DNA of 64,000 bases, taken from positions 46,807 through 110,806 of the forward strand of contig CAKOMY010000005.1 of NCBI GenBank assembly GCA_934096815.1, in the 5' to 3' direction. The DNA is from an uncultured Bacilli bacterium (GTDB lineage Bacteria > Bacillota_I > Bacilli_A > RF39 > UBA660). The notes under the pieces are model-generated. The model was not told the origin of the DNA. It did not search any database and was given only the letters and a program-made list of their open reading frames with translations. Of the stretch, positions 528 through 25,654 are shown in pieces. Numbering within the stretch: the stretch's first letter is position 1; the number at the start of each line of letters is the position of its first letter. The translations under genes and the position numbers were made by a program.

Positions 528-1199
528 TTAATCTAATAATATTTTAACGATACTATTTTCTTTTACAAAAGTATTTCCTTCTGGCATTTGAGATATTACT
601 TTTTCACCACTTCCTGAGTATTCTATTTTAAATCCTTTTAAAGATTTTTTAGCAGTATCTAAATCCATTCCTGTAACATCTGGTAATTTAATATATTTAG
701 TATCTAGCCATGTATATTCTCTAGCTCTATCTGTTTCTACTTTAGGAATATTTTGACTATCAATAATACTTAGCATTATATTTTTAGCAATAGGTGCAGC
801 AACTGTTCCACCATACTGAGTGATACCTTTAGGATTATCAACTGCAACATAGACTACATATTTAGGATTATCAGCTGGTAAGAAGCCAATAAATGAAACA
901 ATATAATTACCAACCATATATTTACCATCTTTAACTTTTTGGGCTGTTCCGGTTTTACCACCTACACGGTAGTTTTCAATGTAAGCATTTTTACCTGTAC
1001 CGTTTTGGACTACACTTTCAAGGGCAAATCTGACTAAGTTACTAGTTTCTTCAGTTACGATATTTTCTCTAACTACTTGTTTTTTATTAAGAACAATTAC
1101 ATTATTTGTTTCAGGTTCACTTATTGATTTAACTATATAAGGTTTATATAATGTTCCACCATTAATAGCGGCTGAGACTCCCGTTACTTGTTGTAACGG
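528..1199 (-). CDS. spoVD: spoVD-like class B PBP, segment 3 of 3 (C-terminal transpeptidase part with KTG box plus single PASTA domain)
   Basis: The frame is open upstream of the listed 528-917 ORF. Hand translation gives PLQQVTGVSAAINGGTLYKPYIVK...YRVGGKTGTAQKVKDGKYMVGNYIVSFIGFLPADNPKYVVYVAVDNPKG..., then one PASTA-like tail (KLPDVTGM...VKILLD). It matches the SpoVD order after TPIQQV. There is no start codon of its own at the junction. Confidence 0.85.
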   Translation of the reverse strand, partial: PLQQVTGVSAAINGGTLYKPYIVKSISEPETNNVIVLNKKQVVRENIVTEETSNLVRFALESVVQNGTGKNAYIENYRVGGKTGTAQKVKDGKYMVGNYIVSFIGFLPADNPKYVVYVAVDNPKGITQYGGTVAAPIAKNIMLSIIDSQNIPKVETDRAREYTWLDTKYIKLPDVTGMDLDTAKKSLKGFKIEYSGSGEKVISQMPEGNTFVKENSIVKILLD

Positions 1200-2823
1200 G
1201 GTCTAATAAATGAAACTTTTTACCTAAATTATTAGAAAGTGTATTTATACTTTCTCCTGTCTTAATAAAAATATCTAATTTAATTTGTTTATCATTTTGT
1301 TTATGAACTATTATTCTATCTATTAGTTCATTAAATACATCACTATAACATTCATCATCCTCTAAACACTTTTCTAATGCATTTTTAAGTTTCTCTGTTT
1401 TATTTTCTATATAATTTTTATCTTTCTTATTGTTTTTTAATTCATTTATTTTTGTTTGATAAATAGTTAAATTTTCATTTATTAAATCTATTTGTTTCTT
1501 ATAATCATCTTTAGATAAGTATTCTTCCATAACAAGTTCTAGTAATTTATCTTTTTTATTATTTAAAACTAATACTTTAGATTCTAAATTTTTTATTTCT
1601 ATTTCATTATTATTTGTTTCTAAATAATTTTTAGATTCACTTAATATTTCATCAAAGATATTATTTCTTCTTTTAAATAATTTATTAAACATATCTTTAA
1701 ATACTTCATCAAGTTCAAGTTCAAATACTCTAGGATTTGAACACCCTTTTAAACTTTCTTTCCGATATACTTGACATTCCCATACAGGATTGTTTTTTCT
1801 TTTTCCCGCACTTGATCTATGATAAGTTAAATTATGGCAACCACAATATATTTTTCCTGAATATGTATATCTATTTTGAAATACTGCTTTATTAACTGCA
1901 CGATTTGTAAAACTATCTTGTCGTTGCTTTAGTTTAATATTAGTTCGTTCCCATAGTTCTTCAGATACTATTGGTGGAACATTATCATAATCTTTATATG
2001 TTATCCAATCAGATTCATTTAATATTTTCTTTTGTTTTGTACGATAATCTAATACCTTTGATTTATGTCCACAATAATATCCTTTATATTTAGGATTTTC
2101 TATAATTCTTGTAAGGATTGTAGTATCTATTCGTTTACCAGTTTTGCTCTTATATCCTAAACTATATAAATATCTTGATACTTTAGATAATCCATCAGTA
2201 GTATTAGCATATCTATCAAATATTATCTTAATCATTTCTGCTTGTTCTTCATCGATTACTAATTTTCCTTTATCTTTTACATAACCATAAATATTAGAAC
2301 ATCCTAACACTACACCATTATCAATACTTCTCTTCATCCCAAATGAAACTCTTTCAGAAAGTCTTCTTACTTCATCTTGAGCAATTGAAGACATCATTGT
2401 AAGTCTAAGTTCAGAATCAGGTAATATCGTATTAATATTATCATTTAGAAAATATACACCAACACCATTAGATAAAAGTTCTTGTGTATACATAATACTA
2501 TCTAATGTACTTCTTGAAAATCTTGATATTTCTTTAGTTAAGATTAAATCAAACTTATGCCTTTTAGCATCTTCTATCATTCTTAAAAATTCTTCACGTT
2601 TTTTAACTTGTGTACCTGATATTCCTTCATCAATATATGAACCTATAAATTTCCAGTTAGGAACTTTACTAATATAATCATTAAAGAAAGATATTTGACT
2701 TTGTAAAGAATGTAACTGTTCGTCTTTATCAGTCGATACTCTTGCATAAAAACATACTCTTAAATTTAATTCTTGTAGTGGAACACCTTTCATAATATTA
2801 TTCCTAACTGTATATAAGTCCAT
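1162..2823 (-). CDS. Large serine recombinase (resolvase/invertase N-domain + recombinase domain + zinc ribbon + coiled coil)
   Basis: Contains YARVSTDKDEQLHSLQSQ (catalytic Ser motif), LTKEISRFSRS, and Cys-rich CGCHN...WECQ...CSNP. Length is about 553 aa. GGAGG lies 7 nt before ATG 2823. The last ~12 codons and the stop lie beyond the att junction, in spoVD-derived DNA. Confidence 0.9.
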   Translation of the reverse strand: MDLYTVRNNIMKGVPLQELNLRVCFYARVSTDKDEQLHSLQSQISFFNDYISKVPNWKFIGSYIDEGISGTQVKKREEFLRMIEDAKRHKFDLILTKEISRFSRSTLDSIMYTQELLSNGVGVYFLNDNINTILPDSELRLTMMSSIAQDEVRRLSERVSFGMKRSIDNGVVLGCSNIYGYVKDKGKLVIDEEQAEMIKIIFDRYANTTDGLSKVSRYLYSLGYKSKTGKRIDTTILTRIIENPKYKGYYCGHKSKVLDYRTKQKKILNESDWITYKDYDNVPPIVSEELWERTNIKLKQRQDSFTNRAVNKAVFQNRYTYSGKIYCGCHNLTYHRSSAGKRKNNPVWECQVYRKESLKGCSNPRVFELELDEVFKDMFNKLFKRRNNIFDEILSESKNYLETNNNEIEIKNLESKVLVLNNKKDKLLELVMEEYLSKDDYKKQIDLINENLTIYQTKINELKNNKKDKNYIENKTEKLKNALEKCLEDDECYSDVFNELIDRIIVHKQNDKQIKLDIFIKTGESINTLSNNLGKKFHLLDPVTTSNGSLSRY

Positions 2824-2834
2824 AATCACACCTC

Positions 2835-3041
2835 CTAAGTTAATAGTTTATAATTGTTTAAATCATTTATATATTTATCATCTTGTTTTTGCTTTTCAAA
2901 TTCTATTTTATGTAACAATTTATTAATACAAAAATTATACATTCCATCATCAATAGTATTATTTCTTTTTAAATATTCAAGTAATTTAATACTTGTTTCT
3001 ATTTCAATAATTTTTGATGGAACTTTATTTTTATTTTCCAT
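2835..3041 (-). CDS. Small protein directly upstream of and co-oriented with LSR A (possible recombination directionality factor or regulator)
   Basis: 68-aa ORF with a 6-11 nt gap to the LSR gene and an AAGAAAGGA SD. No family recognised. The functional call rests on position only. Confidence 0.3.
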   Translation of the reverse strand: MENKNKVPSKIIEIETSIKLLEYLKRNNTIDDGMYNFCINKLLHKIEFEKQKQDDKYINDLNNYKLLT

Positions 3042-3080
3042 ATACTTTGTCCTTTCTTTTAAGTTTATTTTTATAAAAAC

Positions 3081-3107
3081 TTAAAAAGAACTTAAGGTAT
3101 TAAGTTC
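3081..3107 (-). terminator. Putative intrinsic terminator after the 3209-3643 gene
   Basis: GAACTTAAGGTATTAAGTTC (3088-3107) has 8-bp arms (GAACTTAA/TTAAGTTC) around a 4-nt GGTA loop. On the minus strand it is followed by a T-run (plus-strand AAAAA at 3083-3087). Confidence 0.45.
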
Positions 3108-3208
3108 TACAAAAAATTTGAAAACTTAAATACCACAAAGGACAAAATTAGACTAAATCATCATTTGAAATAAATTAAGTTTTCAAATAACAATTTAGTT
3201 TTTTATTA

Positions 3209-3643
3209 TTAATATTTTATAATTTTTCTAGCTATTTCATATCCATCAATACTATCAGGTAATAATTCATCATGTTCTAGTACTAAGAATAATTCTGCAT
3301 GTGTATCTTTCTTTTCTTTAAATGGTAATTTTTCAAACACTGGTATTAATTCTTTATATTCTTTTGGATAAAGACGATAAAGATTAAAAGTATAGTTACA
3401 ATACTCATTAATCTCAATTACTAAATAACGATAATCAATACTACTCGGATTAAATATTTCTATATCTATACCATCATCAAGTAAATTATGATTAACCTCA
3501 CTTAAACTATTAATTTGATCTCTATCCCATAAGTTAAAAACATAGCTAATAAATTTTAGTTTATCATCTCTATCAAGTTCATTTATTTTTATAACTAATT
3601 CTTTTACTTTATTACTTGTATTTTTTAAATACATATCAAACAC
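3209..3643 (-). CDS. Hypothetical protein (144 aa)
   Basis: Clean ORF with no recognisable motif. Confidence 0.45.
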   Translation of the reverse strand: MFDMYLKNTSNKVKELVIKINELDRDDKLKFISYVFNLWDRDQINSLSEVNHNLLDDGIDIEIFNPSSIDYRYLVIEINEYCNYTFNLYRLYPKEYKELIPVFEKLPFKEKKDTHAELFLVLEHDELLPDSIDGYEIARKIIKY

Positions 3644-3886
3644 ACTCCTTCATCTTCAATTTAAGCCATTTTAAGAAACTTTATTTTTTACATTAATAAC
3701 CGATTAAGATTAATATCAAAGTCTCTTATTTCTTAAATTAGATATCAATAAATTAAAATTTATTTTTAACATTTATCACTTAAAAAAAATAATTTTGCAA
3801 GAGTTTTTTATAAAAAAAATTTAATTTTTGGTTTTATCTATTTTATCTTTGTTTTACTTTATTAATCTTTAAGTTATTAATACTAT

Positions 3887-4216
3887 CTAATTATCTATAT
3901 ATGGTTGTTCAGTGTGTACTTTTTGGGTATATTGTTTTTCATAAACAATATAGTTATATAAAAATTTTCCATCTCTAGAATGTCCTTTTTCAATAATTAA
4001 ATATCTATTTTCTTCTAATTCTTTTAGTGCATTAGTAATAGCTAACTTACTTTCTTTACATAAAAGTCTTAAACCATTAATATTAAAATTCCATACATCT
4101 GGTAAAGATAACATTAAAGTTAATAATCCTTTTGCCTTTAAAGATATATTTTTATCTTCTAAATAAGTGTTATCAATCTTCGTATAATTAGTAAGTTTTT
4201 CTGTTCTTATTACCAT
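3887..4216 (-). CDS. Winged-helix DNA-binding protein (replication-initiator/DnaD-like N-terminal HTH type)
   Basis: YTKIDNTYLEDKNISLKAKGLLTLMLSLPDVWNFNINGL...ITNALKELEENRYLI resembles HTH_36/Rep-N type wHTH proteins of plasmids and phages. Confidence 0.55.
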   Translation of the reverse strand: MVIRTEKLTNYTKIDNTYLEDKNISLKAKGLLTLMLSLPDVWNFNINGLRLLCKESKLAITNALKELEENRYLIIEKGHSRDGKFLYNYIVYEKQYTQKVHTEQPYIDN

Positions 4217-4404
4217 AATATTTTTCCTCCTTCCATTTTAAATTCATAATCTTTTTCATATCTTTCTATATAAGATCTATAACCTAGTTCTAATAAATAG
4301 ATAAACATTTTATTCATACTAAAATTATTTTTAATAGATAAAAGCCTAATTCTAGTTTTTAAATTATCATCTAATCTTAATGTGGTTCTTTCAGTACATC
4401 TCAT
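4210..4404 (-). CDS. Ribbon-helix-helix (CopG/Arc-like) DNA-binding protein
   Basis: MRCTERTTLRLDDNLKTRIRLLSIKNNFSMNKMFIYLLELGY shows an RHH beta-strand plus two-helix pattern. The start was taken at the internal Met (4404) rather than the ORF-track start at 4518. Confidence 0.55.
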   Translation of the reverse strand: MRCTERTTLRLDDNLKTRIRLLSIKNNFSMNKMFIYLLELGYRSYIERYEKDYEFKMEGGKILW

Positions 4405-4510
4405 AAAAATTTTCCTTCCTTTCTTAAAATTATGAGTAGCCAATTTTACTATTTTTAAGCTATTTTTTAAGTAAAAAATACTGCATATTTTTAATGGGCA
4501 TAAGGAAAGC

Positions 4511-4680
4511 GACACCACAAATCTATTTATCTTTTTTAAAGCAAAGATAAAATAGTGGTGTCTTACTATTTTTGCACTTGCAAGAATGACTACTTTTACA
4601 AGAGAAAGTGACTACTCATAATTTTATTTACCTTAATTTCAACAAAAAAAGTGGCTACTAATTTAATGAATAGTGACCAC
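4511..4680. promoter_or_regulatory. Iteron-like direct repeats plus long imperfect hairpin upstream of the RHH/wHTH genes
   Basis: Hairpin GACACCAC (4511-4518) with GTGGTGTC (4556-4563) and inner complementary arms. Direct repeats AATGACTAC (4585), AGTGACTAC (4607), AGTGGCTAC (4649) and AGTGACCAC (4672). Confidence 0.45.
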
Positions 4681-4898
4681 CATATAGAAAATCATTAAAA
4701 ATATGTGCTTCCTTTAGTTTTAAACTTATATTATCACCTCCTAACAAAAAAGAGAAAAGCAAAAGTTTCTCTCTCCATATTTTTTCATATTTTACTATAT
4801 TATACCACTTGACAAATCACGGTCAAGTTTATTTCATGACTAATTTATGTCGTTTTATGTATATTTTATGTTGTTTATAATTTTTAACTATTTTACTA

Positions 4899-5189
4899 TT
4901 AATTTAGATCAGTATCATCAATTTTATCTGACTCATTTTTCATTGTTAATAGAATACTATTAATTTCTATTTTTATTTTATTATATTCATCATTATCAAT
5001 GATATCTTTTACTAAATACTCAGGATCTTCTAAAATATACTCATTAATATAAATTTGTAATTCATTATTTGAGTTATAAATATTATCGGTATATGCCACG
5101 TAATCTTTATTAAATTCATCACTATGATAAGTTAAAATAGCATCATATTCTTTTAGATTACCATCTTTATCAATTGCATTTATTTTCAT
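4899..5189 (-). CDS. DUF1292-like small acidic protein
   Basis: IDKDGNLKEYDAILTYHSDEFNKDYVAYTDN...ELQIYINEY...EDPEYLVKDIIDNDEYNKI follows the DUF1292 pattern. Its start overlaps the stop of the upstream gene. Confidence 0.5.
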   Translation of the reverse strand: MKINAIDKDGNLKEYDAILTYHSDEFNKDYVAYTDNIYNSNNELQIYINEYILEDPEYLVKDIIDNDEYNKIKIEINSILLTMKNESDKIDDTDLN

Positions 5190-6181
5190 TATTTTCCTCT
5201 TCCTTTCACAAAATCTACACTTTCTATTTCTTCATTTTGTTTTAATATAACGCCGCCTCTTTTAACAATAGTATCATCCATTGCTTTGGCTTCATCAAAA
5301 GAATTAACATTAGATAAATCTAATCGTTCACCAACATTTGTGCATATTGTATAAAATTTTCCACCTTTATTTTTAAAATTAGGAATAACGTATATATTAA
5401 CCTTTCTTGTTGGTTCTTCTTTAGAAATTCTTACTTTAATATCTTTATCTAGATTAGGCAATATATTCTTATATCTAGCATACCAAGTAAACATATCAGT
5501 ACCATCAGAAAATCTACTTTCTTGTAGAAAAGGAATATATCCCAAGTTAGAAACTGTATCTAACAATTCTTTAATTCTATCATCAATTGATAAAGCATTT
5601 TTATTGTATGTTTGTAAATGAAGCAATAATTTTTCAACAAACTCAGGATCAAAAGATTCTAATTTATCATAAATAGTTCTGACATCAATTCCATCTTGAA
5701 TAATTACTTCCCCATGATTAGGAATTCTTTTTAACTTTTTAATTATATTAATAAACTCTACTTTTACAAATGACCAAATAGAAGCTAAATCTAGTTCTTG
5801 ATATTCTTTTAAACTATTATGAATAATTGTTTCAAAATTTCTATTTTTTCCTTTATAATTCATATACCATGAATGCATTTCATCATTATCACTAAAATAT
5901 GATTCTCCATATAATGGTATTTGCTTCCTTTTATTAATATAATCAATAAATTCCTGTTCTTTTTCTTCATTAGAGAGTATTTTTAAATCAAAATTACTTA
6001 ATATCTCGTTTATTTCAGTAAAGAAACTCTTATATTTTTCAATCTTAGATATTTTATTAAACCACAACCTCATATCTTCGTTATCACTAAATCTTACTTC
6101 CCATATTCTAGGCATTTTGTGTTCTTTAGTAACAAACTCCTTAAATTCTATTTTGCTTTTTTCAAATAATTCTTTAGACAA
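5189..6181 (-). CDS. Protein made of helicase-associated (HA)-like repeats
   Basis: Four repeats of the type hP..GE.(R/Y)FSD(N/G).DM..W(F/Y): MPRIWEVRFSDNEDMRLWFNK; IPLYGESYFSDNDEMHSWYMNYK; IPNHGEVIIQDGIDVRTIY; IPFLQESRFSDGTDMFTWYARYK. Confidence 0.5.
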   Translation of the reverse strand: MSKELFEKSKIEFKEFVTKEHKMPRIWEVRFSDNEDMRLWFNKISKIEKYKSFFTEINEILSNFDLKILSNEEKEQEFIDYINKRKQIPLYGESYFSDNDEMHSWYMNYKGKNRNFETIIHNSLKEYQELDLASIWSFVKVEFINIIKKLKRIPNHGEVIIQDGIDVRTIYDKLESFDPEFVEKLLLHLQTYNKNALSIDDRIKELLDTVSNLGYIPFLQESRFSDGTDMFTWYARYKNILPNLDKDIKVRISKEEPTRKVNIYVIPNFKNKGGKFYTICTNVGERLDLSNVNSFDEAKAMDDTIVKRGGVILKQNEEIESVDFVKGRGK

Positions 6182-6195
6182 ATTATATACCTCCT

Positions 6196-6408
6196 TTACT
6201 TTCCAAGAAGTCTTTTAAGCTTTATATTTTCTTCTTCTAAAGCTTTAACTTCTTGTGATAATTTAGAAATCTCTCCTCTATATAACTTATTTAAATCTTC
6301 AAGTTCTTCAAGAGGTAATTCATCTAAATTTATAGTTTTATTATCTAAATTCTTTTTATTATTAATCATAGTTTTATATTCTTCTAATTCAACTATTTTA
6401 TCATTCAT
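6196..6408 (-). CDS. Small coiled-coil protein (70 aa)
   Basis: Heptad-rich charged sequence ending EVKALEEENIKLKRLLGK. It sits tightly between the two HA-repeat genes. Confidence 0.4.
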   Translation of the reverse strand: MNDKIVELEEYKTMINNKKNLDNKTINLDELPLEELEDLNKLYRGEISKLSQEVKALEEENIKLKRLLGK

Positions 6409-6409
6409 A

Positions 6410-9286
6410 TTACATAGCCCTCCTATAAGAAGAATTTAATTCTTCAGTTAATTCTTGGTTTTCAATACTTAATTGTTGTTTTCTTAATAATAATGAATCT
6501 CTTAATTCTATTAATGATTTAACATCTTTTTTAGTCTTATCTAATGTATCAATATATTCATCTATAGTTTTAAACTCAGGTTGTTTTTTCTTTAATCTTT
6601 GAATATTTAAATATTCCATTATTCTTTGTTTTGCTATATCATATTTTTTACTAGCATAATTTTCTGAATAAAACAACAAAGGAATTATTTTTCTATCTTT
6701 ATTGTTTGCCCAAAATGAACCTATTTCTCCGTATTCTTTATCTAAAGCAAAATTTCCATTTTCATCTTGTTTATATGTTTTAAATCTTTGATTAGAATGT
6801 GCTTTAAATATTTGATCAGTTCTTTCATTTTCTATATTTATCATATTAATAAATATTTCTAATCTTCTTTTTTTACCTTCATCACTTTGTTGTCCATTAT
6901 ATGTATTCATATAATAATCATCCATTTTATTTTTTAATATTTCATTTTTTTCTATTAGTGGAATTATTTCCATTTTATTTTTGGCCCAAAATGATCCTAT
7001 TTCTCCATACTCCTTATCCAAAATTATATTTCCATTTCTATCATATCTAAATGTTTTGAATTTTTCTTTTGATTGACACTCTAAATATGATGAAAGAACC
7101 TGCTCGTTATCTTGATATTTTAACATATCAATAAATATTTCTATTCGTCTTTTATGACCATCATCGCTTTTTTGCCCACTATATGTATTCATATAATAAT
7201 CATCCATTTTATTTTTTAATATTTCATTTTTTTCTATTAGTGGAATTATTTCCATTTTATTTTTGGCCCAAAATGATCCTATTTCTCCATACTCCTTATC
7301 CAAAATTATATTTCCATTTCTATCATATCTAAATGTTTTGAATTTTTCACTTGATTTACTAGTTAGATAGTTAGCATATTCTTCCAAATTATTTATTTTA
7401 TTTAGCATATCAATAAATACTTCTATTCGTCTTTTATGACCATCCACGCTTTTTTGTCCACTTAATGTATTCATATAATAAAAATCCATCTTATCCCTTA
7501 ATATAATATTTTTTTTTATTAATGGAATTATTTCATTCTTATTACTTGCCCAAAATGATCCTATTTTTCCATATTCTTTATCAATAGAAATACCTTCTTT
7601 CCCACTTTTATATGTTCTAAAATTCAAATTTGAGCCTTGTTTTAATAAATTACTAATTTCTTCTTCGTTTCTTGAATATAAAAGCATATCAGTAAATATT
7701 TCTATTCGTCTTTTATGACCATCCATGCTTTTTTGTCCACTTAATGTATTCATATAATAATCATCTAATTTATTTTTTAATGTTTCATCATTTTTTATTA
7801 TGAATTGAATTTTTTCCTTATTTCTTGTCCAAAATGATCCTATCTTACCATAATTTTTTTGGACATTAATATTGTTAAACTTTATATATGTTTGGAAATT
7901 TGCATTAGAATCACCTTTTAAAAGTTCTGATATTTCTTTTTCAGTGCTAGCCATTCTTAACATATTTACAAAAATTGTTAATCTTCTTTCATTTCCTTCT
8001 TTACTTTTTTGTCCACTTAGAGTATTCATGTAATAATCGTCTAATTTAGATAATAGTGCAAAATCATTTTTAAATGATGTATTTATAATATTTAATATTT
8101 CTTTTTTATTTTTTCTATAAAACGCACCGATTTGACCATACTTCTTGCTTTCAACCCATTCTCCAAATTCATTTTGTTTATATATCGTAAAGTGAATTGT
8201 TGATTTATCTTTAAAAAGTTCTGATAATTCTTTAAGATCTTTTACCCTTTTTATCATTTCAATAAAAATTAATATTTTAGTATTGTGACTTATATTTATG
8301 TTATCAACAAACTTTTGTTTTAAATCTTCATTTATGTTATAAATATCACAATATAATAGGTTACTTTCTTCTATATCTTGGATATTTTCAAAATAATCAT
8401 TTATATTTTTATAGGATTTCATTAATATAGACTTAATATTATTTATTCTTTCTCTTATTTCACTTTCATAATCTTTGTCTTTTAATGATTTTAATAATTT
8501 ATTCATATCAATCTTCAAAGAATATGATAAATAACGTTTTGAATTTTCTCCTAATGCTTCTTTAAATACTGTTTGTACAGCATTAATTACTTTTTCAAGT
8601 TCATCAATATTGCCAAATGTATTTTGTTCTTTTAAATTATTTAATTGGGAATTATATTTTGATATATCTCTATTTTTAGATAATTCATTTATTAAATCAT
8701 TAATTAATTGATAATAGGTTATAGTTTGCTGAATATTTGTATTGGTTTTGTTACTCGTTCTATCTTTTAAATCTATTGATAAATCATCATTCTCTATATA
8801 ATCATCACTATTTAATGGATTATCATAATCATACAATTCTTCTTCAGTGGGTTCTTTAAAAGCTAGAGTATATCCTTCTAACATATATTTAATTAATCTT
8901 TCTAATCTATCATAATTAAAATAATTTTGTTCTTGCCACCATACTAAAAGATTAGCCTCATCACTTTTTGATAAATTTACTTTATTTAAAATAGGAATGC
9001 AATTAAATAATACAGTCCCACCATTACTTGATACTGGTAATATGTGTTCTAAATGAGCAGTAGATAAATCACTTATTATTTCACCACTATAAGGACATCT
9101 ATATGCAACAATATCTTCTTTATTTTCAGTATAATTTCCATTGGAATCAACTCCAAAATATTTAAGAGCAAGAGCATTCATTTGCCTTCTATATAATTCT
9201 GATACTAATCCTCTATCAGCAGTTCTTCTTAAATTTCCATCAACTTGACTATAGCTAATTAAATTTTCTACTAAATATTCATACAT
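6410..9286 (-). CDS. HNH endonuclease fused to six tandem ~94-aa HA-like repeats (958 aa)
   Basis: The N-terminus has YRCPYSGEII...AHLEHILPVSSNGGTVLFNCIPILNKVNLSKSD (HNH-type H..H...N....N, around 9035-9058). Six repeats follow, of the form RR.EIF.DML...F(K/R)T(Y/F)...KEYG.IGSFW..NK..I....N..L..K.D.YYMNT.SGQKS. Confidence 0.75.
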   Translation of the reverse strand: MYEYLVENLISYSQVDGNLRRTADRGLVSELYRRQMNALALKYFGVDSNGNYTENKEDIVAYRCPYSGEIISDLSTAHLEHILPVSSNGGTVLFNCIPILNKVNLSKSDEANLLVWWQEQNYFNYDRLERLIKYMLEGYTLAFKEPTEEELYDYDNPLNSDDYIENDDLSIDLKDRTSNKTNTNIQQTITYYQLINDLINELSKNRDISKYNSQLNNLKEQNTFGNIDELEKVINAVQTVFKEALGENSKRYLSYSLKIDMNKLLKSLKDKDYESEIRERINNIKSILMKSYKNINDYFENIQDIEESNLLYCDIYNINEDLKQKFVDNINISHNTKILIFIEMIKRVKDLKELSELFKDKSTIHFTIYKQNEFGEWVESKKYGQIGAFYRKNKKEILNIINTSFKNDFALLSKLDDYYMNTLSGQKSKEGNERRLTIFVNMLRMASTEKEISELLKGDSNANFQTYIKFNNINVQKNYGKIGSFWTRNKEKIQFIIKNDETLKNKLDDYYMNTLSGQKSMDGHKRRIEIFTDMLLYSRNEEEISNLLKQGSNLNFRTYKSGKEGISIDKEYGKIGSFWASNKNEIIPLIKKNIILRDKMDFYYMNTLSGQKSVDGHKRRIEVFIDMLNKINNLEEYANYLTSKSSEKFKTFRYDRNGNIILDKEYGEIGSFWAKNKMEIIPLIEKNEILKNKMDDYYMNTYSGQKSDDGHKRRIEIFIDMLKYQDNEQVLSSYLECQSKEKFKTFRYDRNGNIILDKEYGEIGSFWAKNKMEIIPLIEKNEILKNKMDDYYMNTYNGQQSDEGKKRRLEIFINMINIENERTDQIFKAHSNQRFKTYKQDENGNFALDKEYGEIGSFWANNKDRKIIPLLFYSENYASKKYDIAKQRIMEYLNIQRLKKKQPEFKTIDEYIDTLDKTKKDVKSLIELRDSLLLRKQQLSIENQELTEELNSSYRRAM
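6665..8290 (-). repeat. Intragenic tandem repeat array (six units, about 282-bp period) inside the HNH gene
   Basis: Protein-level repeats are listed above. At DNA level, 6901-7066 and 7183-7348 are an exact 166-bp direct repeat offset by 282 bp. Confidence 0.85.
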
Positions 9287-9297
9287 ATTAACACCAC

Positions 9298-9747
9298 CTA
9301 TATAATTCCTGCAATTTCATCTATTTTTTTATTTATTATATTAGGGTTATTTAATATAATTTGTTTTATATTATCAATAGAATAATTCTTATTTAAATAA
9401 TCAATGATTTTATCAAATTCTAAAGGACTACATGTATAAATATTACTATTATTATTCAGCAAATATTTAATTTGCTCATTAAATAAATTTAATTTATTAA
9501 TATATATTTCATCAAATGCATTTTTTCTCTTTGAAGATAAAGTTAATATAAATGGATTGATATTAACTAAACTAATTATTTCTTTATTATTTAATCCTTT
9601 ACCTGCGAAAAAATTTATATTTTCTTTAACTTTATCTAAAGATACAAAATACATATCTTCATTTAATTCTTCAAATCTATCTAAATTTTCTTTACTAAAT
9701 CCATAATTTATTAAGTATTCATATATTTCATTTTTCATATAATTCAA
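9298..9747 (-). CDS. mTERF-like repeat protein (tentative)
   Basis: YLINYGFSKENLDRF..., FFAGKGLNNKEIISLVNINPFILTLS and YLNKNYSIDNIKQIILNNPNIINKK match the mTERF repeat pattern (L..G.s...i..i....P.il..s). Confidence 0.4.
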   Translation of the reverse strand: MNYMKNEIYEYLINYGFSKENLDRFEELNEDMYFVSLDKVKENINFFAGKGLNNKEIISLVNINPFILTLSSKRKNAFDEIYINKLNLFNEQIKYLLNNNSNIYTCSPLEFDKIIDYLNKNYSIDNIKQIILNNPNIINKKIDEIAGII

Positions 9748-9758
9748 ACTCCTATCAA

Positions 9759-10610
9759 TTAAACAGTTACTAATTCCTGTTCTAATATATCTATTATTTG
9801 CTTTATTGCATCAATAGTATCTTCAAATTTCACATTTCTTACATAGTTAAGTTTCCTACTGTAATTATCAAATAATTCTTTTAATACAATACTATCTTTT
9901 ATTATTTCAAATATATCATTTAAGTATTCTATATTAAAATTTGTGTTTCTATGTTTAAAAGTTCTTTCTATTGCTTTAACAAGTGTATTTTTATTTATTT
10001 TATCTATATGATTGTTTACTATTATATACACATCATAAAAATCCTTTGCTCTAGTCGTAGAAATATTTTTACTAATTATACTTTCAAATTTTTCAGCAAT
10101 TATAGTTTCAATTGTATATGCCATAATGTTAATAGTTTTATCTTCAAAAATAGAACTATACTTATATTTTATCTCTCTCGGTGTAATGATATCTCCAGTA
10201 GTTACTTCTATAAAGAAATGGGTTTTTAATTTATCAAATTCTCCATATACATTTATTCTATAACCACTATAAAAATCATCTAATCTAATATCTTTAACAC
10301 TTTCAATTTTAAAGATAAAACCATCTTCTATATCTATTGATAATATTTCTTCAAAAATATTTTTAATAGACTCTTCATTAAGTGGAATACTTTTTAAAGT
10401 GGCATCTATATCTTTTGTAGTTCTCATATCACTTCCTATAATTGAAGAAAGTAATACACCACCCTTTAAAATAATGTTATCTTTATACCTACTTTTTTCT
10501 AATCTCATTAATACATGTTCAAAAAAAAACATTTGATGAAGATGTAGTGATACATCATTACTTCCATTAGCACGCTTTTTAATAAGGGCATTAAGTTTAT
10601 CGCTATTCAT
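9759..10610 (-). CDS. abiEii: AbiEii/AbiGii-family nucleotidyltransferase toxin (type IV TA)
   Basis: IILKGGVLLSSIIGSDMRTTKDIDATLKS is the hallmark DUF1814/AbiEii motif. Length is 283 aa. ATG overlaps the stop of the upstream antitoxin gene. Confidence 0.85.
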   Translation of the reverse strand: MNSDKLNALIKKRANGSNDVSLHLHQMFFFEHVLMRLEKSRYKDNIILKGGVLLSSIIGSDMRTTKDIDATLKSIPLNEESIKNIFEEILSIDIEDGFIFKIESVKDIRLDDFYSGYRINVYGEFDKLKTHFFIEVTTGDIITPREIKYKYSSIFEDKTINIMAYTIETIIAEKFESIISKNISTTRAKDFYDVYIIVNNHIDKINKNTLVKAIERTFKHRNTNFNIEYLNDIFEIIKDSIVLKELFDNYSRKLNYVRNVKFEDTIDAIKQIIDILEQELVTV

Positions 10611-11203
10611 TATAAAATCACCTGCATAATTTCCGCTACTTCTTTTTCAATATTTAATTTTTTTGAATACTTAGCAAGTTTTAGCATATCTTTATCTTTT
10701 CTTTCAGCATACCATTTTAAAGCTTTAGTATATATTTCTTTATCCATATGATTTTTATCTTTAATAATATCACAAATAGTTCTTTCAACATCATAACATT
10801 TAATATCCATACCGAATGGAGATTTAATAGTTTCCATTCCTAAATTTAAAATGTTATTATCTACATAGTGAAGCGATACAACATCAATATTTTGTAATGG
10901 TCCACCATAACCACGAGGTACTGTAATATCAAAATATAGTGGTGTTCTATCTGATAGTTCATGTAAAAATAAAGATGTTGTATAAGAAAATATAGCATTT
11001 TTACTTTTAGAAATTATTTTATAATAATCATCATTAATCATATTAGGTAATGAATAGTATCCAGTTGATACTCTCTCTAATATTCCACCATCACATAGTC
11101 TTTTTAATGCCATTTTGTTTAGTCCATTATCTACCACTTCTTTAGTAGTAATATATCCATCATTTTTTTGTACTAATTGTAAAATTTTTTCTAAATCACT
11201 CAT
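10610..11203 (-). CDS. abiEi: AbiEi-family antitoxin/transcriptional regulator
   Basis: MSDLEKILQLVQKNDGYITTKEVVDNGLNKMALKRLCDGGILERVSTGYYSLP is an AbiEi N-terminal wHTH. The start was set at Met 11203 (AGAGGTG SD upstream), not 11245. Confidence 0.8.
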   Translation of the reverse strand: MSDLEKILQLVQKNDGYITTKEVVDNGLNKMALKRLCDGGILERVSTGYYSLPNMINDDYYKIISKSKNAIFSYTTSLFLHELSDRTPLYFDITVPRGYGGPLQNIDVVSLHYVDNNILNLGMETIKSPFGMDIKCYDVERTICDIIKDKNHMDKEIYTKALKWYAERKDKDMLKLAKYSKKLNIEKEVAEIMQVIL

Positions 11204-11361
11204 AAGTAACACCTCTCTTATAATAATTATACAATAATAAATCATAAAAGAAAATAGTTTTTGTTACTTTTTTAATTATTTTTTAAATATTTTAATTTTA
11301 AAAGTAACATTTTTACAAACAAAAAAGCCAACTTATCATCGTTGACTCTTCTGGCAAATAT

Positions 11362-11399
11362 GCAATTATTTATAAATAATGCATTATTTATAAATAATT
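11362..11399. promoter_or_regulatory. Two tandem copies of a perfect 16-bp palindrome ATTATTTATAAATAAT, about 160 nt upstream of abiEi
   Basis: GCAATTATTTATAAATAAT then GCATTATTTATAAATAATT, read directly from the sequence. Operator-like architecture. Confidence 0.35.
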
Positions 11400-11873
11400 G
11401 TTTACACCTTTGTAAGCTTTGACATACTCACACTCTTTATTTGCTACTTGCATAATTTTTTCAATGGCAAAAAGAGCTTAATACTCAACAATATACCATC
11501 TCCATAATTTCATCTATAGTTTTAGTAATAACAAATTATTACATAGCGCTAAAATTAAATTTAATGGTTGTTAACTAATTATTTAATACTAAGGGTGTAC
11601 CACTGAAGGTAAAGCACCTTTTAACATTGTTTTTATGGTGCATCACCTCCTTATATCGTTATTTTCAAGATAAAGTACATACACTTCTTCATCCATCTAA
11701 CAACAATTAAATTATACCACATCTGCCAATATTTACCAAATAAATATAAGAAAAAAAGTTTAAATTTCTACAAAGCAATTATAAATAAAATCAACATCAT
11801 ACTTTTTTGTATATTTACTAGTAAATCCTATAGTAATAGTAATGGTATCATTTATTAGACAGTAAGGTGAATA

Positions 11874-12069: not shown

Positions 12070-12150
12070 TTGGTGTTACCATTGGAACATAAAAGAGCAT
12101 TTTTTTCCTTTATTTTCAAGACTTCCACTAAGAGTTCCAATGTTCTTATG

Positions 12151-13833
12151 TCAGCTGTTTTGAATCTCTATATCACCATAAGAACATTTTTCTGGATAAA
12201 AATTTGATAACTCAAGTTTTTTTATTTTGTTATCAATTTCTAATTCTCTGTATATTGTATCTGCATTAAAATTGAAATAAATAATTAATCTTACATGTTT
12301 TCTATCGCCATTTATTTTTTCAACTTCTACTCTTTCAACTAATATTCTCATTAAATTAGGTAGCTCTTTCTGTAAATCAACTTTTGAAGTAAGGGTATTT
12401 CTAACTTCTATTATTTTTTCCTTTAATTTTGTAAGTTCTGCATTAGGATTATTAAGTCTATCAATTTTCGTTTTTAAGGAATTAATTTCGTTGTTAAACT
12501 TATCATTTCTTTTCTTAAACTCTAAATCATCAATCATTCCTTTAATACTCAAATCTAATAATTTATTCTTTTGGTTTTCTATTTTTGTAATTTGATTGTT
12601 TATACTTCCAATATCATCAGAGCTATTATTACTACTTATAATATTCTCATATTCATTTATTACCCCACTTAAATATTCTTTTTTATTATCTATAAAATCA
12701 TTAAATATTTGTACAAATATCTTATCTAGATATTCTTCTCTTAAAATTGGTGAAGCACAGGCACCAACCCCTTCTGTCTTGTATTTCTTACAAGACCATG
12801 TAGGATTATTTGCTCTATTACTTCCACCAGCTCTTATAAATACATTTCCACAATCCTTACAATATAATAAACAGCTATATTTTGAATTTTCTAAAGATTT
12901 TTCAGAATTTAGAATGTGTCTTGCAGGTGATTTTTTTCTCATCTCATGAAGTTCATTTGCTTTATTCCATAACTCTTCAGATACAATTGCTGGAACTCTA
13001 TCATCATGCTCAATTATTTGTCTTTCTTTTGGAACTTTTTTCTTTTTATGTGTTTTATAATTTTCAACCTCAGTTAATCTAGCAGTATAATACCCTTTAT
13101 ATCTAGGATTAGTTAAAAATTTTGCCATAGTTGTATCAGAATAAGGTTCCCCTTTTGAATTTAAATATCCCATTTTTGCAAGATCTTGTCCTATCTTCTT
13201 AAGACCAACTTTCCCAGATGCATAAGTTTCAAAAAGATAAGTAATTATTGGTGCTTCTGCTGGATTAATTTCATATCTTCCATCTTTTTTGAAATATCCA
13301 GTTAAATTACCACCAATAAGTTTTCTATCTTTAATCATTCTATTAATACCAAATTTAACTCTTTCAGAAAGTTTTCTAACTTCATCTTGAGCTAAGCTTG
13401 ACATAATTGTAAGTCTAAACTCCGAATCTTCCCCTATTGTATTAAGATTGTCTGATAAAAAATATACAATAACTCCCTGTTTTAATAAATACTCTGTATA
13501 TTTTATACTATCAACAGTATTTCTTGAAAACCTTGATATCTCTTTTGTAACTATCATATCTATTTTTCCAAGAGTAGCATCCTCAATCATTTTTAGAAAT
13601 TTATCTCTATTTTTTACAGCAGTTCCACTAATTCCTTCATCTATATAACCACCACAAAATATCCAGTTTTTGTTTTCTGTTATCATTTCTTCAAAATAGT
13701 TTTGTTGGTTCTCCAAACTATTTAATTGATCGTCCTTATCTGTTGAAACACGAGCATAATATACTACTCTAAGTGGCATATCATAAATCGTTTTTCCTTT
13801 TCTTAAATCTTCCCTTGCTTTTTTTATATCCAT
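12151..13833 (-). CDS. Large serine recombinase (560 aa)
   Basis: YYARVSTDKDDQLNSLENQ, VTKEISRFSRN, zinc-ribbon Cys cluster CLLYCKDCGN...WSCKKY...C, and a coiled-coil C-terminus. Paralog of LSR A. Confidence 0.9.
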   Translation of the reverse strand: MDIKKAREDLRKGKTIYDMPLRVVYYARVSTDKDDQLNSLENQQNYFEEMITENKNWIFCGGYIDEGISGTAVKNRDKFLKMIEDATLGKIDMIVTKEISRFSRNTVDSIKYTEYLLKQGVIVYFLSDNLNTIGEDSEFRLTIMSSLAQDEVRKLSERVKFGINRMIKDRKLIGGNLTGYFKKDGRYEINPAEAPIITYLFETYASGKVGLKKIGQDLAKMGYLNSKGEPYSDTTMAKFLTNPRYKGYYTARLTEVENYKTHKKKKVPKERQIIEHDDRVPAIVSEELWNKANELHEMRKKSPARHILNSEKSLENSKYSCLLYCKDCGNVFIRAGGSNRANNPTWSCKKYKTEGVGACASPILREEYLDKIFVQIFNDFIDNKKEYLSGVINEYENIISSNNSSDDIGSINNQITKIENQKNKLLDLSIKGMIDDLEFKKRNDKFNNEINSLKTKIDRLNNPNAELTKLKEKIIEVRNTLTSKVDLQKELPNLMRILVERVEVEKINGDRKHVRLIIYFNFNADTIYRELEIDNKIKKLELSNFYPEKCSYGDIEIQNS

Positions 13834-13874
13834 TATTCCTCACTCTCCTTTCATGTTCTTAAAAAGCAAGATAA

Positions 13875-14123
13875 CTAGGATGATGACATGCTGCCATGAT
13901 TTTTCACTATTGTCAAACCATCATTAATCTTGTCTTTATATTCATTTTTTATTTTTGTCATTCTTCCAAGTATTGATTGTTCCATTAAACTAAAAACTTT
14001 TAAATCAATTACTTTACTCTCATATAATTCTCTATTTAAAATTAGTCGCCATTCTAATAATTTATATTCCAAAGGCAAATGTTTGGTACTACACTTTATT
14101 TCAATATCATCTGTATTATACAT
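13875..14123 (-). CDS. Small protein directly upstream of LSR B (possible RDF or regulator)
   Basis: 82-aa ORF, co-oriented, with a 41-nt gap to the LSR gene. No family recognised. Confidence 0.3.
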   Translation of the reverse strand: MYNTDDIEIKCSTKHLPLEYKLLEWRLILNRELYESKVIDLKVFSLMEQSILGRMTKIKNEYKDKINDGLTIVKNHGSMSSS

Positions 14124-14139
14124 GTTATACCATCCTCAT

Positions 14140-14409
14140 TTAACTATATGAGATAAAGATATAAATAATACTAAATAAAAATACACATTTAGGATTTTTA
14201 ATTCTACCATTTTCTAGTAACCATAATTCTATTTCAGATATATCTGATATTCTAAATAAATCACTTAAAGTAAGATTTAATTTATTTCTTGCTATTTTAA
14301 TTATTTCACTTAATTTTTTATATTTAATTTGTCTCTCTTCCTCTCTAGCACTCTTACTAGATATTTTTAATGCACAAAATAAAAAAAGTGATAATCCTAA
14401 AACTAACAC
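14140..14409 (-). CDS. XRE-like HTH-containing ORF, possibly degraded
   Basis: IKIARNKLNLTLSDLFRISDISEIELWLLENGRIKNP looks like an XRE HTH. The ORF starts at GTG with a hydrophobic leader, and short out-of-frame ORFs lie just upstream. Confidence 0.3.
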   Translation of the reverse strand: MLVLGLSLFLFCALKISSKSAREEERQIKYKKLSEIIKIARNKLNLTLSDLFRISDISEIELWLLENGRIKNPKCVFLFSIIYIFISYS

Positions 14410-14506
14410 TATAAATACTATAAATATTAATCATTTCAAAAATGGCATCATATCACCTCATTTTCATAATAAAAAAGAATAGAAATTCTTTTAGAAAATC
14501 TATTCT

Positions 14507-15016
14507 TTATTTAACTTTATTAGCAAGCTTTATAACTGCTTTAGTATATTTCATAAGTTCTTTTTTATTTTTAAATCCACAAGTCATTGCATAATAATCA
14601 GTATAGCTATCATCTTCTTTTACTAACTTTAATTGTAAAGATTTATTTATATTATAATTTTCTTTAGCAGACAAGTTAGATAATTTAGAATAATCTTTGA
14701 TTGTTATATTATAAAGTGGATCATTGCTTTTAAATTTATCATATATTTCATTTGATATTATACAATTATCAATAAGTTCCTCGTTATTCTCAAACTCTAT
14801 TAATGTCTTGTTTTTTTCAGGATATACTGTTACATTTTTAACTCTATCAATGTACACTACTTTTCCATCTTTTATTTTACCAACATATGGTTCTCTTGAT
14901 GATAGTAAAACAATAATTAGTATAACAACTAGAAGAATACTTGAAATAATGATAATTTGTTTTTTAGATAGTTTCTTTATCTTTAATTTTGTCTTTTTCA
15001 CATTACCATCCCTCAA
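14507..15016 (-). CDS. Membrane-anchored hypothetical protein (169 aa)
   Basis: N-terminal Lys-rich stretch followed by a TM helix (IIIISSILLVVILIIVLL). No known domain recognised. Confidence 0.5.
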   Translation of the reverse strand: MRDGNVKKTKLKIKKLSKKQIIIISSILLVVILIIVLLSSREPYVGKIKDGKVVYIDRVKNVTVYPEKNKTLIEFENNEELIDNCIISNEIYDKFKSNDPLYNITIKDYSKLSNLSAKENYNINKSLQLKLVKEDDSYTDYYAMTCGFKNKKELMKYTKAVIKLANKVK

Positions 15017-15059
15017 TTTTTATATTAAAAAGGAGTTAGAGAAAACTCTAACTCACAGT

Positions 15060-19604: not shown

Positions 19605-19635
19605 ATCTTCCTCCTTCCTATATAACTATACTATT

Positions 19636-19691
19636 TTTTCACTTTCTTTAATAGATGAAAAAAGTCATATTATTCTTGCAAAAAATATGAC
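19636..19691 (-). promoter_or_regulatory. Conserved promoter/leader module, copy 1 (upstream of the adhesin gene)
   Basis: TTTTCACTTTCTTTAATAGATGAAAAA at 19636-19662 and AAAAATATGAC at 19681-19691. The same two blocks occur with the same 45-nt offset upstream of 19986-21197. Confidence 0.5.
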
Positions 19692-19719
19692 TTTTGACAC
19701 ATTTTAAATATTTAATACC

Positions 19720-19938
19720 TTAATTTACTACGGCTACACAATACACTTCTAATTTTTGCCCTCCAACGGTAGTTGCAGTAATTGTAGCAGATGAGTTGAT
19801 TGTAGCATTTACTTTTCCAATACAAGTAGTATCATTTGTTGTAACACTTCCTGAAACAGTTCCACTTGTAGACCATTTAACACTTTGATTTGATTTAACA
19901 GTAAAATCATTAGAGCCAGTATTAAAATATCTATTTTT
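19720..19938 (-). pseudogene. Start-less Big_2-like (bacterial Ig) domain remnant
   Basis: Hand translation gives KNRYFNTGSNDFTVKSNQSVKWSTSGTVSGSVTTNDTTCIGKVNATINSSATITATTVGGQKLEVYCVAVVN*. A stop lies immediately upstream and there is no ATG. Confidence 0.35.
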
Positions 19939-19985
19939 ATCATTTTAATTATTTTTACTCTTTTTTACTGAATACTTTTTTAATA

Positions 19986-21197: not shown

Positions 21198-21227
21198 AAT
21201 ATCTCCTCCTAATAATATTATATATTA

Positions 21228-21283
21228 TTTTCACTTTCTTTAATAGATGAAAAAGGTAATACAAATTTAAGAAAAAATATGAC
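21228..21283 (-). promoter_or_regulatory. Conserved promoter/leader module, copy 2 (upstream of 19986-21197)
   Basis: Identical 27-mer TTTTCACTTTCTTTAATAGATGAAAAA at 21228-21254 and AAAAATATGAC at 21273-21283. It lies in the divergent intergenic region shared with the LuxR-type regulator gene. Confidence 0.5.
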
Positions 21284-21376
21284 AAAAGTAATAGTTTTTC
21301 TATTAAACTCATTGTTTTATATATGAAAAATTCAACTTTGATGATATAGTATTTATATATTCTTGAGGTGAATATT

Positions 21377-22006: not shown

Positions 22007-22046
22007 AGAAGAAATATTTTGTAAAATTGATTTCTTCTTTTTTATG
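22005..22046. terminator. Bidirectional intrinsic terminator between convergent genes
   Basis: 11-bp stem AAAGAAGAAAT (22005-22015) pairing with ATTTCTTCTTT (22030-22040), followed by TTTT. Confidence 0.6.
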
Positions 22047-24752: not shown

Positions 24753-24813
24753 TTTTTAGGTAAAGCAATGAATTTTAACTATAATTTTGTTAGAAGATAT
24801 TTGGTGATAAATA

Positions 24814-25623: not shown

Positions 25624-25654
25624 AAAGATTGGATAATATATAATATGATACTTA

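Follow-up and report, generated by a model that had tools for sequence, protein, structure and literature searches.

A five-gene module around an HNH protein with an exchangeable repeat array in uncultured gut Firmicutes: a candidate conflict system

We analysed a 64,000-nucleotide stretch of DNA from an uncultured Bacilli bacterium (contig CAKOMY010000005.1, positions 46,807 to 110,806; hereafter the window), in which five co-oriented, translationally coupled open reading frames (ORFs) run from 9747 to 4899 on the minus strand (Table 1). In reading order they encode an mTERF-like protein, a 958-aa HNH protein that we call BIG, a 70-aa coiled-coil protein (cc70), a 330-aa repeat protein (p330) and a 96-aa DUF1292-like protein (p96). 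The original prediction, made from the letters of this DNA, had described a tightly packed minus-strand operon of this extent, and the ORFs and their spacing agree with it. Counted from the mTERF gene, the first three junctions measure 11, 1 and 14 nt, and at the fourth the p330 stop and the p96 start overlap in TAATG. A Shine-Dalgarno-like GGAG precedes the mTERF gene and a GGTGGTG precedes that of BIG. Because of this upstream GGAG and because orthologues are 146 aa long, the true start of the mTERF gene is probably the ATG at 9738, which gives 146 aa. The stop codon of an AbiEii gene lies 11-20 nt upstream of the mTERF gene, the first of the operon, and the GC content is 21-23%. A promoter and terminator scan was uninformative, the DNA being AT-rich, and an Rfam scan of window positions 1-34500 matched no RNA family.

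The HNH motif of BIG lies at aa 64-104. Against Pfam HNH_4 the protein scores 17.5-20.2 bits, just under the gathering score of 22, and it matches phrog_1035 (endonuclease VII) at 2.3e-8. BIG carries the catalytic signature of the HNH superfamily: an acidic residue paired with the general-base His, a structural Asn and, in the helix, an Asn/His that binds metal. Here these are [E/D]80-H81-N95-N104, and they are invariant in 36/36 aligned homologues. In an AlphaFold2 model of BIG (mean pLDDT, the predicted local distance difference test score, 84), the core has beta strands at 61-63, 77-81 and 96-100 and then a helix (105-109). The BIG family comprises 73 clusters at 90% identity, with 74 representatives at E<1e-30, and its profile retrieves hundreds of remote proteins that match over exactly the HNH region. 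Remote relatives matched there at 1e-14 to 1e-9 belong to Pfam HNH, HNH_4 or HNH_5 (about half of 51 members each). The solved structures nearest to them are Cas9, the Gme HNH nickase and several HNH-domain proteins of ~750 aa. By these family matches the core belongs to the Cas9/IscB-like HNH_4 type and keeps its catalytic signature intact, and nuclease activity is predicted.

Behind the core, the model shows an acidic, disordered stretch (151-187), after which a helical linker leads, up to about residue 335, to the six repeats; a 40-residue helix follows at the C-terminus. A Foldseek search of this model against the PDB gave no significant match, only weak local HNH matches and solenoid noise. 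BIG does not share the layout of polymorphic toxins: Pfam finds no secretion-related domain, the N-terminus is hydrophilic, and, unlike in those toxins, the HNH domain is N-terminal and the variable part is an internal repeat array rather than the catalytic tip. One relative, P0279, shares the HNH core of BIG and has seven near-identical 30-aa tandem repeats (EEFKAYPHLFTSxVLAHSTPERIQEIIAS, residues ~330-535) in place of the HA repeats, and is thus a further case of a BIG-type HNH joined to a different repeat array. We also considered P0279 as an HNH-mTERF fusion, but its Pfam mTERF score of 20.2 bits lies below the gathering threshold and BLAST against the mTERF protein of the window gives E 0.028, and we did not use it as evidence.

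The repeats of BIG begin at aa 336, 434, 526, 619, 713 and 807, and in the model each consists of a pair of helices, a long beta hairpin and three further helices, with pLDDT ~90 across the repeats. They are visible in the DNA as a 282-nt period of 4.1 copies, two of them 94% identical. These boundaries and this period, together with the invariant catalytic signature, uphold the earlier description of BIG as an HNH nuclease with six ~94-aa repeats. The near-identical copies are repeats 4 and 5 (6837-7359), which contain a 168-nt (56-codon) core that is 100% identical; in the patch next to it, 18 codons hold 14 non-synonymous differences. Either the two repeats underwent gene conversion recently, with a sharp boundary, or the variability is confined to this patch.

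The repeats of both BIG and p330 had been called helicase-associated (HA)-like, and this held for p330 at the level of fold but could not be demonstrated for BIG by sequence. Pfam HA (PF03457) found nothing even at E<=10 in single BIG repeats, in p330 or in its N-terminal 256 aa; a hidden Markov model (HMM) of canonical HA repeats matched neither protein; and in hhalign comparisons among BIG, p330 and HA repeats the best result, p330 against HA (P=0.006, probability 6%), fell short of significance like all the others, that of BIG against HA included. A BIG repeat is about 30 residues longer than an HA repeat and bears the long beta hairpin. The link comes from a distant member of the family and from other HNH proteins. 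P0259 (family profile E 1.4e-28, aligned over 9-991), the distant member, combines HNH_4 with Pfam HA at 1.5e-18, and behind the HNH and linker that it has in common with BIG come nine canonical HA repeats; P0286, P0323 and P0327 are likewise HNH+HA proteins with a BIG-type core. This suggests that the repeats of BIG are HA-like by homologous architecture only, not by sequence.

The C-terminal tail of BIG is 96-100% identical between copies of the carrier element described below. It is present in 6/6 BIGs from loci that encode a cc protein and absent in 2/2 distant BIGs from loci without one. The cc gene, where present, always follows BIG. cc70 itself gives only weak coiled-coil-type matches in profile searches; its conservation is 97-100% between elements and falls to 50-64% in distant loci.

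The mTERF-like assignment of the first protein proved sound: it scores 31.3 bits against Pfam mTERF (PF02536), above the gathering score of 23.1 (E 1.3e-7, profile positions 111-249 of 314), and its orthologues in other loci are likewise annotated mTERF. All eight of its PDB sequence matches are sub-threshold (best E 0.022), and all are mitochondrial: mTERF1, mTERF3 and mTERF4. mTERF proteins have a helical-repeat fold that binds (double-stranded) nucleic acid. The mTERF gene adjoins BIG wherever members of the BIG family were examined, with the small cc gene between them in one architecture, and it is co-duplicated with BIG.

p330 comprises HA-like repeats (aa 1-256, nt 5414-6181) and a conserved beta-beta-alpha-beta domain (aa 257-330, nt 5192-5413). 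Its model (pLDDT 83.8) shows four helix/mini-hairpin/helix/helix units and the small C-terminal domain. Four structural repeats are therefore present, as had been claimed, but only three of them bear the FSD..DM..W motif, the third being degenerate. Foldseek against BFVD matched a Mimivirus helicase-domain protein (E 2.6e-5, probability 1.0) as well as Pithovirus and Klosneuvirus helicases, and, more weakly, a Siphoviridae phage protein named 'Helicase associated domain' (E 6e-3). The matched regions would be the HA arrays of those helicases. On this modelled fold the repeats of p330 are HA-like, the HA-type fold being shown for p330 only; the repeat profile of p330 retrieved no HA entry among PDB sequences, and Foldseek of the model against the PDB gave no significant match. 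The p330 family counts 239 clusters, nearly all 330 aa long. Proteins of 550 aa (L039, 5566-7218) and 560 aa (L009, 4251-5933) occupy the place of p330 in two other loci; they share with it only the C-terminal ~90-aa beta domain (motif NxY.IPN...GG.FY), while their N-terminal repeat ('[DE]LP.v....L..yl') differs and a coiled coil lies at their C-terminus. Because the beta domain is the only part common to p330 and these counterparts, it may be the constant functional part of the protein.

The DUF1292-like label of p96 stands in a weaker form. Pfam, PF06949 included, found nothing in p96, and the NCBIfam PRK13678 models match at E 4.5e-6 to 1e-3, far below their cut-offs; the label draws mainly on the 35-43% identity of p96 to orthologues in L009 and L039 that bear weak PF06949 matches. 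p96 comes after p330 in every locus whose contig extends past p330, except L034.

We annotated the architecture of 42 retrieved loci, cited here by their L numbers. The whole gene set is kept in dozens of independent metagenomic contigs, which argues that the five-gene cluster is not a chance arrangement; the strong co-occurrence of these genes in other genomes bears out the earlier view of one tightly coupled, conserved cluster. Besides the spoVD-type element of the window, with the order (AbiEi-AbiEii-)mTERF-BIG-cc-p330-p96, the same genes occur in shuffled order in at least five other contexts, four of them without AbiE or recombinase. L027 has mTERF-BIG-cc-p330-p96 between an intact penicillin-binding protein (PBP) gene (spoVD) and mraY, without recombinase or AbiE. 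BIG-cc-mTERF-p330-p96 is found at a different chromosomal site in L010, L028 and L030, p560-DUF1292 (p85)-[mTERF-BIG-cc]x3 in L009 and L008, and p550-DUF1292-mTERF-BIG in L039, beside the rpsL operon (rpsL-fusA-tuf) and with a BIG related only at E 1e-28. The remaining arrangements are p330-p96-BIG (L038), BIG-mTERF (L042, with no p330 identified in the available part of the locus), p330-p96 alone (L033, and L015/L016 between mreD and thiI in a spore former) and a copy disrupted by an insertion sequence (IS) in L013.

Nearly all the genomes examined carry the module at a chromosomal site of their own, and the conservation of its membership despite changing order and location argues for a functional linkage. 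An AbiE pair is absent beside it in L006/L007, L009, L010, L027, L039 and L042, and it stands without recombinase or element in L010, L027, L039 and L009. The AbiE pair and the mobile element that had been noted around the operon are both genuine, but the occurrence of the module without them in L027, L039, L010 and L009 indicates that it is tied to neither. Across these gene orders the cluster resolves into two sub-modules, [mTERF-BIG-cc] and [p330-like + DUF1292-like].

Both sub-modules have variants of their own. In L009 (3863-16078; also in L008, L011 and L012), [mTERF-BIG-cc] is triplicated in tandem, with mTERF and cc 95-97% identical between the copies, BIG 74-78% identical, and BIG lengths of 901, 794 and 1011 aa. 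The L009 triplication has upstream of it a C39-peptidase ABC exporter and two small, bacteriocin-like peptides with double-glycine leaders, and downstream murT/gatD. In L015 (10001-11268) and L016, the p330 and DUF1292-like pair occurs without nuclease or mTERF, flanked by mreC/mreD and thiI; sporulation genes (YlbD_coat, SASP) are present in the genome. NUDIX genes that adjoin some copies were considered as module members and rejected, being the same gene at variable distance, or unrelated, between loci.

Comparison of the element copies pinpoints BIG as the variable component. Protein identity between copies is 95-97% for mTERF, 97-100% for cc, 97-99% for p330 and 99-100% for p96, but only 47-65% for BIG. 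At the DNA level the window is 92-94% identical to L003/L004 throughout, except at 6648-8251, within the repeat array, where blastn finds no alignment. Synonymous divergence (dS) of the window against L001 and L003 is 0-0.10 for mTERF, the BIG tail, cc, p330 and p96, 0.26-0.34 for the BIG N-terminus, 0.33-0.42 for the recombinase and 0.7-0.9 for the BIG repeat array; for AbiE it is 0.31-0.45 against L001. Repeat number ranges from 2 to 9 across the BIG family, and elements that are >95% identical encode BIGs of about 600, 706 and 1013 aa. The array is exchanged as a cassette, expands and contracts, and is the only hypervariable part of a near-identical module. Where the array is alignable, the ratio of non-synonymous to synonymous divergence (dN/dS) is 0.43, not above 1, and for this reason its diversity looks like old divergent alleles recombined into recently shared flanks rather than demonstrable positive selection.

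The gene combination matches no named system, as had been stated; it is unnamed and uncharacterised. PADLOC, PHROGs and NCBIfam gave no functional assignment for the five proteins, and among PHROGs there was no structural, terminase or replication match beyond generic HNH, so the candidate system is not reassigned to a phage structural or replication module. Protein-level searches with BIG and p330 found no relatives in 50,697 phage records or 72,556 plasmids, nor did scans of the 2.9 million viral contigs of IMG/VR with the family alignments of the two proteins. No source searched holds a name for the homologues, and literature searches on DUF1292, bacterial mTERF and HA+HNH returned nothing directly relevant, including no pairing of an mTERF with an HNH nuclease. 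All loci have a GC content of 23-30%, and one contig is labelled human gut metagenome. The GTDB genomes with relatives are two metagenome-assembled genomes only, titled 'uncultured Bacillales' and 'uncultured Clostridia', with no cultured host. The module is so far confined to uncultured low-GC gut Firmicutes.

Taken together, the five genes most likely form one functional module around a modular DNA endonuclease. We tentatively favour the possibility, which we put at somewhat less than an even chance, that this module is a restriction-like conflict nuclease, directed against phages, plasmids or rival elements, whose recognition arm is exchanged by recombination; an anti-phage function, as originally suggested, would be one form of it. 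The strongest new argument for a conflict role is the cassette-like hypervariability of the array. Further support comes from a set of features typical of conflict genes: the diversity pattern, tandem amplification, mobility, non-syntenic sites and the IS-decayed copy. Its placement points the same way, as element cargo next to AbiE, in non-syntenic positions between genomes and with one IS-degraded copy (L013).

In such a nuclease, the repeat array would act as the target-recognition arm and bind DNA. We propose this role because distant homologues carry canonical HA repeats at this place, because nuclease-HA fusions are known, and because HA domains have been reported to bind DNA (Mills et al. 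2013, as cited in PMC12191111). Swapping the array would then alter what BIG recognises. The tail of BIG and cc70 may pair as a coiled coil, which would regulate the enzyme or bring about its oligomerisation, and mTERF and p330/p96 could position, license or restrain the nuclease on DNA. As no methyltransferase is present, mTERF and p330/p96 may also provide self-protection.

A nuclease fused to a recognition module is a known kind of enzyme, and it is the set of partners for which we found no precedent. HA domains occur as C-terminal partners of restriction-type phospholipase D (PLD) nucleases, in which the C-terminal domain sets substrate choice (PMC12191111). They are one of several fusion partners of these single-chain enzymes, along with EVE, helicase and pseudobarrel domains (END nucleases, BfiI, SauUSI; PMC12191111). 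BIG shares with them an N-terminal nuclease and a separate module, for which a role in substrate choice is plausible, and, like Type IV-like enzymes, its module lacks a cognate methyltransferase. The nuclease of BIG is, however, of the HNH type, its array is long (2-9 repeats of ~94 aa) and cassette-swapped, and the four conserved partners (mTERF, coiled coil, p330 and DUF1292-like protein) have no counterpart among the PLD fusions.

The closest parallel to the variation itself is the shuffling of target-recognition domains in HsdS of Type I systems, where conserved machinery is likewise combined with one part whose recognition modules are exchanged by recombination. Both show old divergent alleles in near-identical flanks and tandem paralogues available for exchange. 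The module differs in having no methyltransferase, ATPase or invertible segments, and in that its variable part is fused to the nuclease itself. Among the partner families, HA repeat proteins (PF03457) are represented by the fold match of p330 and by the distant BIG-family members with canonical HA, in a module that has no helicase of its own. The mTERF protein matches the Pfam profile of the mitochondrial and plastid transcription termination factors, but it is bacterial, about half their size at ~146 aa, and genetically coupled to an HNH nuclease.

Several results weigh against a conflict nuclease with an exchangeable arm. We identified no ATPase, methyltransferase or mechanism of self/non-self discrimination in the module, and PADLOC-DB v2 returned zero families at E<=0.1 for all five proteins. 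The proposed arm has neither significant HA similarity by HMM or hhalign nor a fold match in the PDB, and its dN/dS ratio fails to exceed 1. Some copies sit in core-looking contexts, L039 (rpsL operon), L027 (spoVD-mraY) and L015, and the p330-p96 pair, found by itself between mreD and thiI, is conserved far beyond the level typical of defence genes. A bolder form of the hypothesis makes the ~94-aa HA-like repeats a natural exchangeable DNA-recognition code on an HNH cutter, that is, a TALEN-like nuclease with an mTERF partner and a new class of methylation-independent restriction in gut Firmicutes, its specificity reprogrammed by repeat swap, gain and loss. This we regard as decidedly speculative. 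Hypervariable positions resembling the repeat-variable diresidues of TALE proteins were looked for in the BIG repeats and none were found; across 49 distinct repeats, positional entropy is only moderately raised at positions 10-28, with no sharp two-/three-residue hotspot. Repeats 4 and 5 of the window, however, show a sharp local contrast between their identical 56-codon core and the adjoining 18-codon patch.

The alternative to be taken most seriously, unlikely as we consider it, is a lineage-specific housekeeping complex that processes nucleic acids of the host, in rRNA/tRNA maturation or in DNA repair and recombination, and of which the element merely took up a copy. In eukaryotes, mTERFs frequently work on the rRNA of organelles or in RNA processing, and canonical DUF1292 (YrzB) lies in a conserved Firmicute operon with RuvX and IreB; the proteins of the module would be tied to these associations by family assignment. 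The core-looking contexts (rpsL-fusA-tuf, mreCD-thiI, spoVD-mraY), the strong conservation and constant length of p330 over its 239 clusters, and the lack of matches in the phage and plasmid collections all suit such a role. An array that is cassette-swapped and variable in copy number in otherwise identical operons is not what a housekeeping complex would lead one to expect, and nor are tandem triplication, IS decay, carriage on an excisable element and shifting chromosomal sites. Quite unlikely, in our estimate, is that two independent systems, an [mTERF-BIG-cc] nuclease unit and a [p330-DUF1292-like] pair with a function of its own, are simply often adjacent. The sharply different divergence patterns of the two units are in keeping with this, as are the solitary p330-p96 pairs of L015/L016 and L033, the multiplication of [mTERF-BIG-cc] without p330-p96, and the BIG-mTERF of L042, where the available part of the locus shows no p330. 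Yet the units stay together through at least four gene orders and a large sequence distance, with all four components retained in L039, whose BIG matches at E 1e-28 only; the 14 nt between cc and p330 fit translational coupling, and HA-type repeat proteins occur in both.

More doubtful still is a toxin-antitoxin or addiction module that stabilises its carrier DNA, with BIG as an HNH toxin neutralised by mTERF or the coiled-coil protein. Its appeal lies in the location on a mobile element beside another toxin-antitoxin/Abi pair, in a small partner translationally coupled to the nuclease and in the co-duplication of toxin and partner. Five genes that include a 958-aa multi-repeat protein would be atypical, however; the variable part of BIG changes without a matching change in mTERF or cc, there is no evident use for a hypervariable recognition array in simple addiction, and copies exist in non-mobile contexts. 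The least probable of all, to the point of being very remote, is a service to the PBP-interrupting element in excision, replication, transfer or packaging. The module makes up nearly half of a small element that otherwise holds a recombinase, a possible recombination directionality factor (RDF), a ribbon-helix-helix (RHH) regulator and a truncated Rep-like protein, and HNH nucleases help terminases in some phages. Copies without recombinase or element (L010, L027, L039, L009) largely refute this idea, and neither the PHROG matches, generic HNH aside, nor the phage, plasmid and viral-contig searches lend it support. The maintenance or packaging role put forward in the original prediction is thus unlikely, since the module occurs without mobile element or AbiE.

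Should the restriction-like conflict reading hold, the module would be a nuclease system made of parts not earlier tied to defence (bacterial mTERF, HA-type arrays and DUF1292), found in uncultured gut Firmicutes, whose defence repertoires are poorly charted. It would also give a first functional setting to three poorly understood families, HA, bacterial mTERF and DUF1292. The near-identical operons that differ only in their array amount to a natural experiment for comparing binding or cleavage specificity, and repeats that read DNA modularly would interest protein engineers. As a housekeeping complex, the module would be a lineage-specific curiosity of lower general interest.

In the window, the module is carried by element A, which interrupts a PBP gene (Table 1). 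We located the pieces of this gene by aligning the intact homologous PBP from L027 (638 aa; domains PBP_dimer, transpeptidase and a single PASTA). The SpoVD-like PBP gene lies in three pieces, split by two different serine-recombinase elements, A and B, inserted ~70 codons apart; across element A its reading frame carries on. We infer that the PBP is SpoVD from its domain architecture and its mraY and FtsW/SpoVE-family neighbours. The same element occupies the same position of the PBP gene in L001-L005, L019 and L029, where mraY and an FtsW/SpoVE-family gene adjoin.

Table 1. Features of the module and its surroundings in the window.
Feature	Position	Strand	Basis
mTERF-like protein	9298..9747	-	149 aa as listed
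BIG (958-aa HNH protein, six ~94-aa repeats, C-terminal coiled-coil tail)	6410..9286	-	ORF, family and model
HNH (beta-beta-alpha-Me) catalytic core of BIG, aa 60-110, CPYSG...LEHILP...FNC...N	8957..9109	-	HNH_4, phrog_1035, invariant residues
Hypervariable repeat array of BIG, aa 336-902, six repeats	6581..8281	-	repeat boundaries, DNA period, model
Conserved C-terminal tail of BIG, aa 903-958, ~40-aa helix	6413..6580	-	helix 920-957 in model
cc70 (70-aa coiled-coil protein)	6196..6408	-	ORF; weak coiled-coil-type matches
p330 (330 aa, four HA-like helical repeats and C-terminal domain)	5189..6181	-	ORF, model, Foldseek
p96 (96 aa, DUF1292-like)	4899..5189	-	sub-threshold NCBIfam PRK13678; identity to orthologues
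Element A (~10.7 kb), carries the module, interrupts SpoVD-like PBP gene	1203..11866	-	PBP alignment, recombinase domains
Large serine recombinase at the end of element A	1162-2829		domain matches
AbiEii	9759-10610	-	strong Pfam and PADLOC matches
AbiEi	10610-11245	-	strong Pfam and PADLOC matches
PBP residues 5-355	32379-31327		alignment to L027 PBP
PBP residues 344-419	12091-11867		alignment to L027 PBP
PBP residues 416-638	1202-531		alignment to L027 PBP
Element B (~19 kb), second element in the PBP gene	~12092-31326
Large serine recombinase of element B	12151-13833

Element A has the layout of an intervening element, with a large serine recombinase at its end and a sporulation-type gene that excision could restore. 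The skin, gin and yin elements and SPbeta in spsM (PMC5595907, PMC10747680, PMC4191935) likewise combine an end-located serine recombinase with a split sporulation-type gene; the likeness concerns the carrier and not the five-gene module. Literature searches found no paper on an intervening element in spoVD. The carrier appears to represent an undescribed family of elements in a SpoVD-like gene and would add to the 'skin-like' intervening elements.

Among the other genes of element A, the truncated replication-initiator-like winged-helix protein is a 109-aa ORF (3887-4216) whose similarity to phage replication initiators and to DnaD-like loaders is limited to their N-terminal winged helix (phrog_4707, E 1e-20, profile 7-105 of 409). 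Element A seems to encode no replication enzyme beside this truncated Rep-like DNA-binding protein. A sequence at 4799-4828 (minus strand), TTGACC-16-TATAAT with an extended TG, is the region's best match to a sigma-70-like promoter; it overlaps an inverted repeat with a 7-bp stem and is situated between the RHH/Arc-like gene (4210-4518) and the end of the module. It may be the operator/promoter of the regulatory genes of the element, or the terminator of the module.

A variant of element A in L006 (1-9300; also in L007) has, in place of AbiE, a co-oriented cluster of at least 9 kb directly upstream of mTERF-BIG. Its genes encode ASCH-GNAT, GNAT, NUDIX, NT5C-like, radical SAM, HhH-GPD-like, dNK/thymidylate-kinase-like, PfkB-like and MazG-like proteins, which together look like a nucleotide/DNA-modification or nucleotide-depletion pathway; PADLOC recognised no system in this cluster. 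L004/L005 show the same double occupancy of the PBP gene as the window, with another second element that encodes a TraG-like coupling protein. In the window, element B encodes a surface protein of 1514 aa (15060-19604) that bears a signal peptide and, C-terminally, a hydrophobic segment. It also has a VanZ-like protein, a Listeria-Bacteroides-repeat protein and a pair of adjacent ORFs with matches to a 7TM histidine-kinase N-terminal region and to HATPase_c. A second AbiEi/AbiEii pair (32567-34012) lies outside both elements, directly upstream of the 5' PBP piece, and its AbiEii is 69% identical to the copy in element A.

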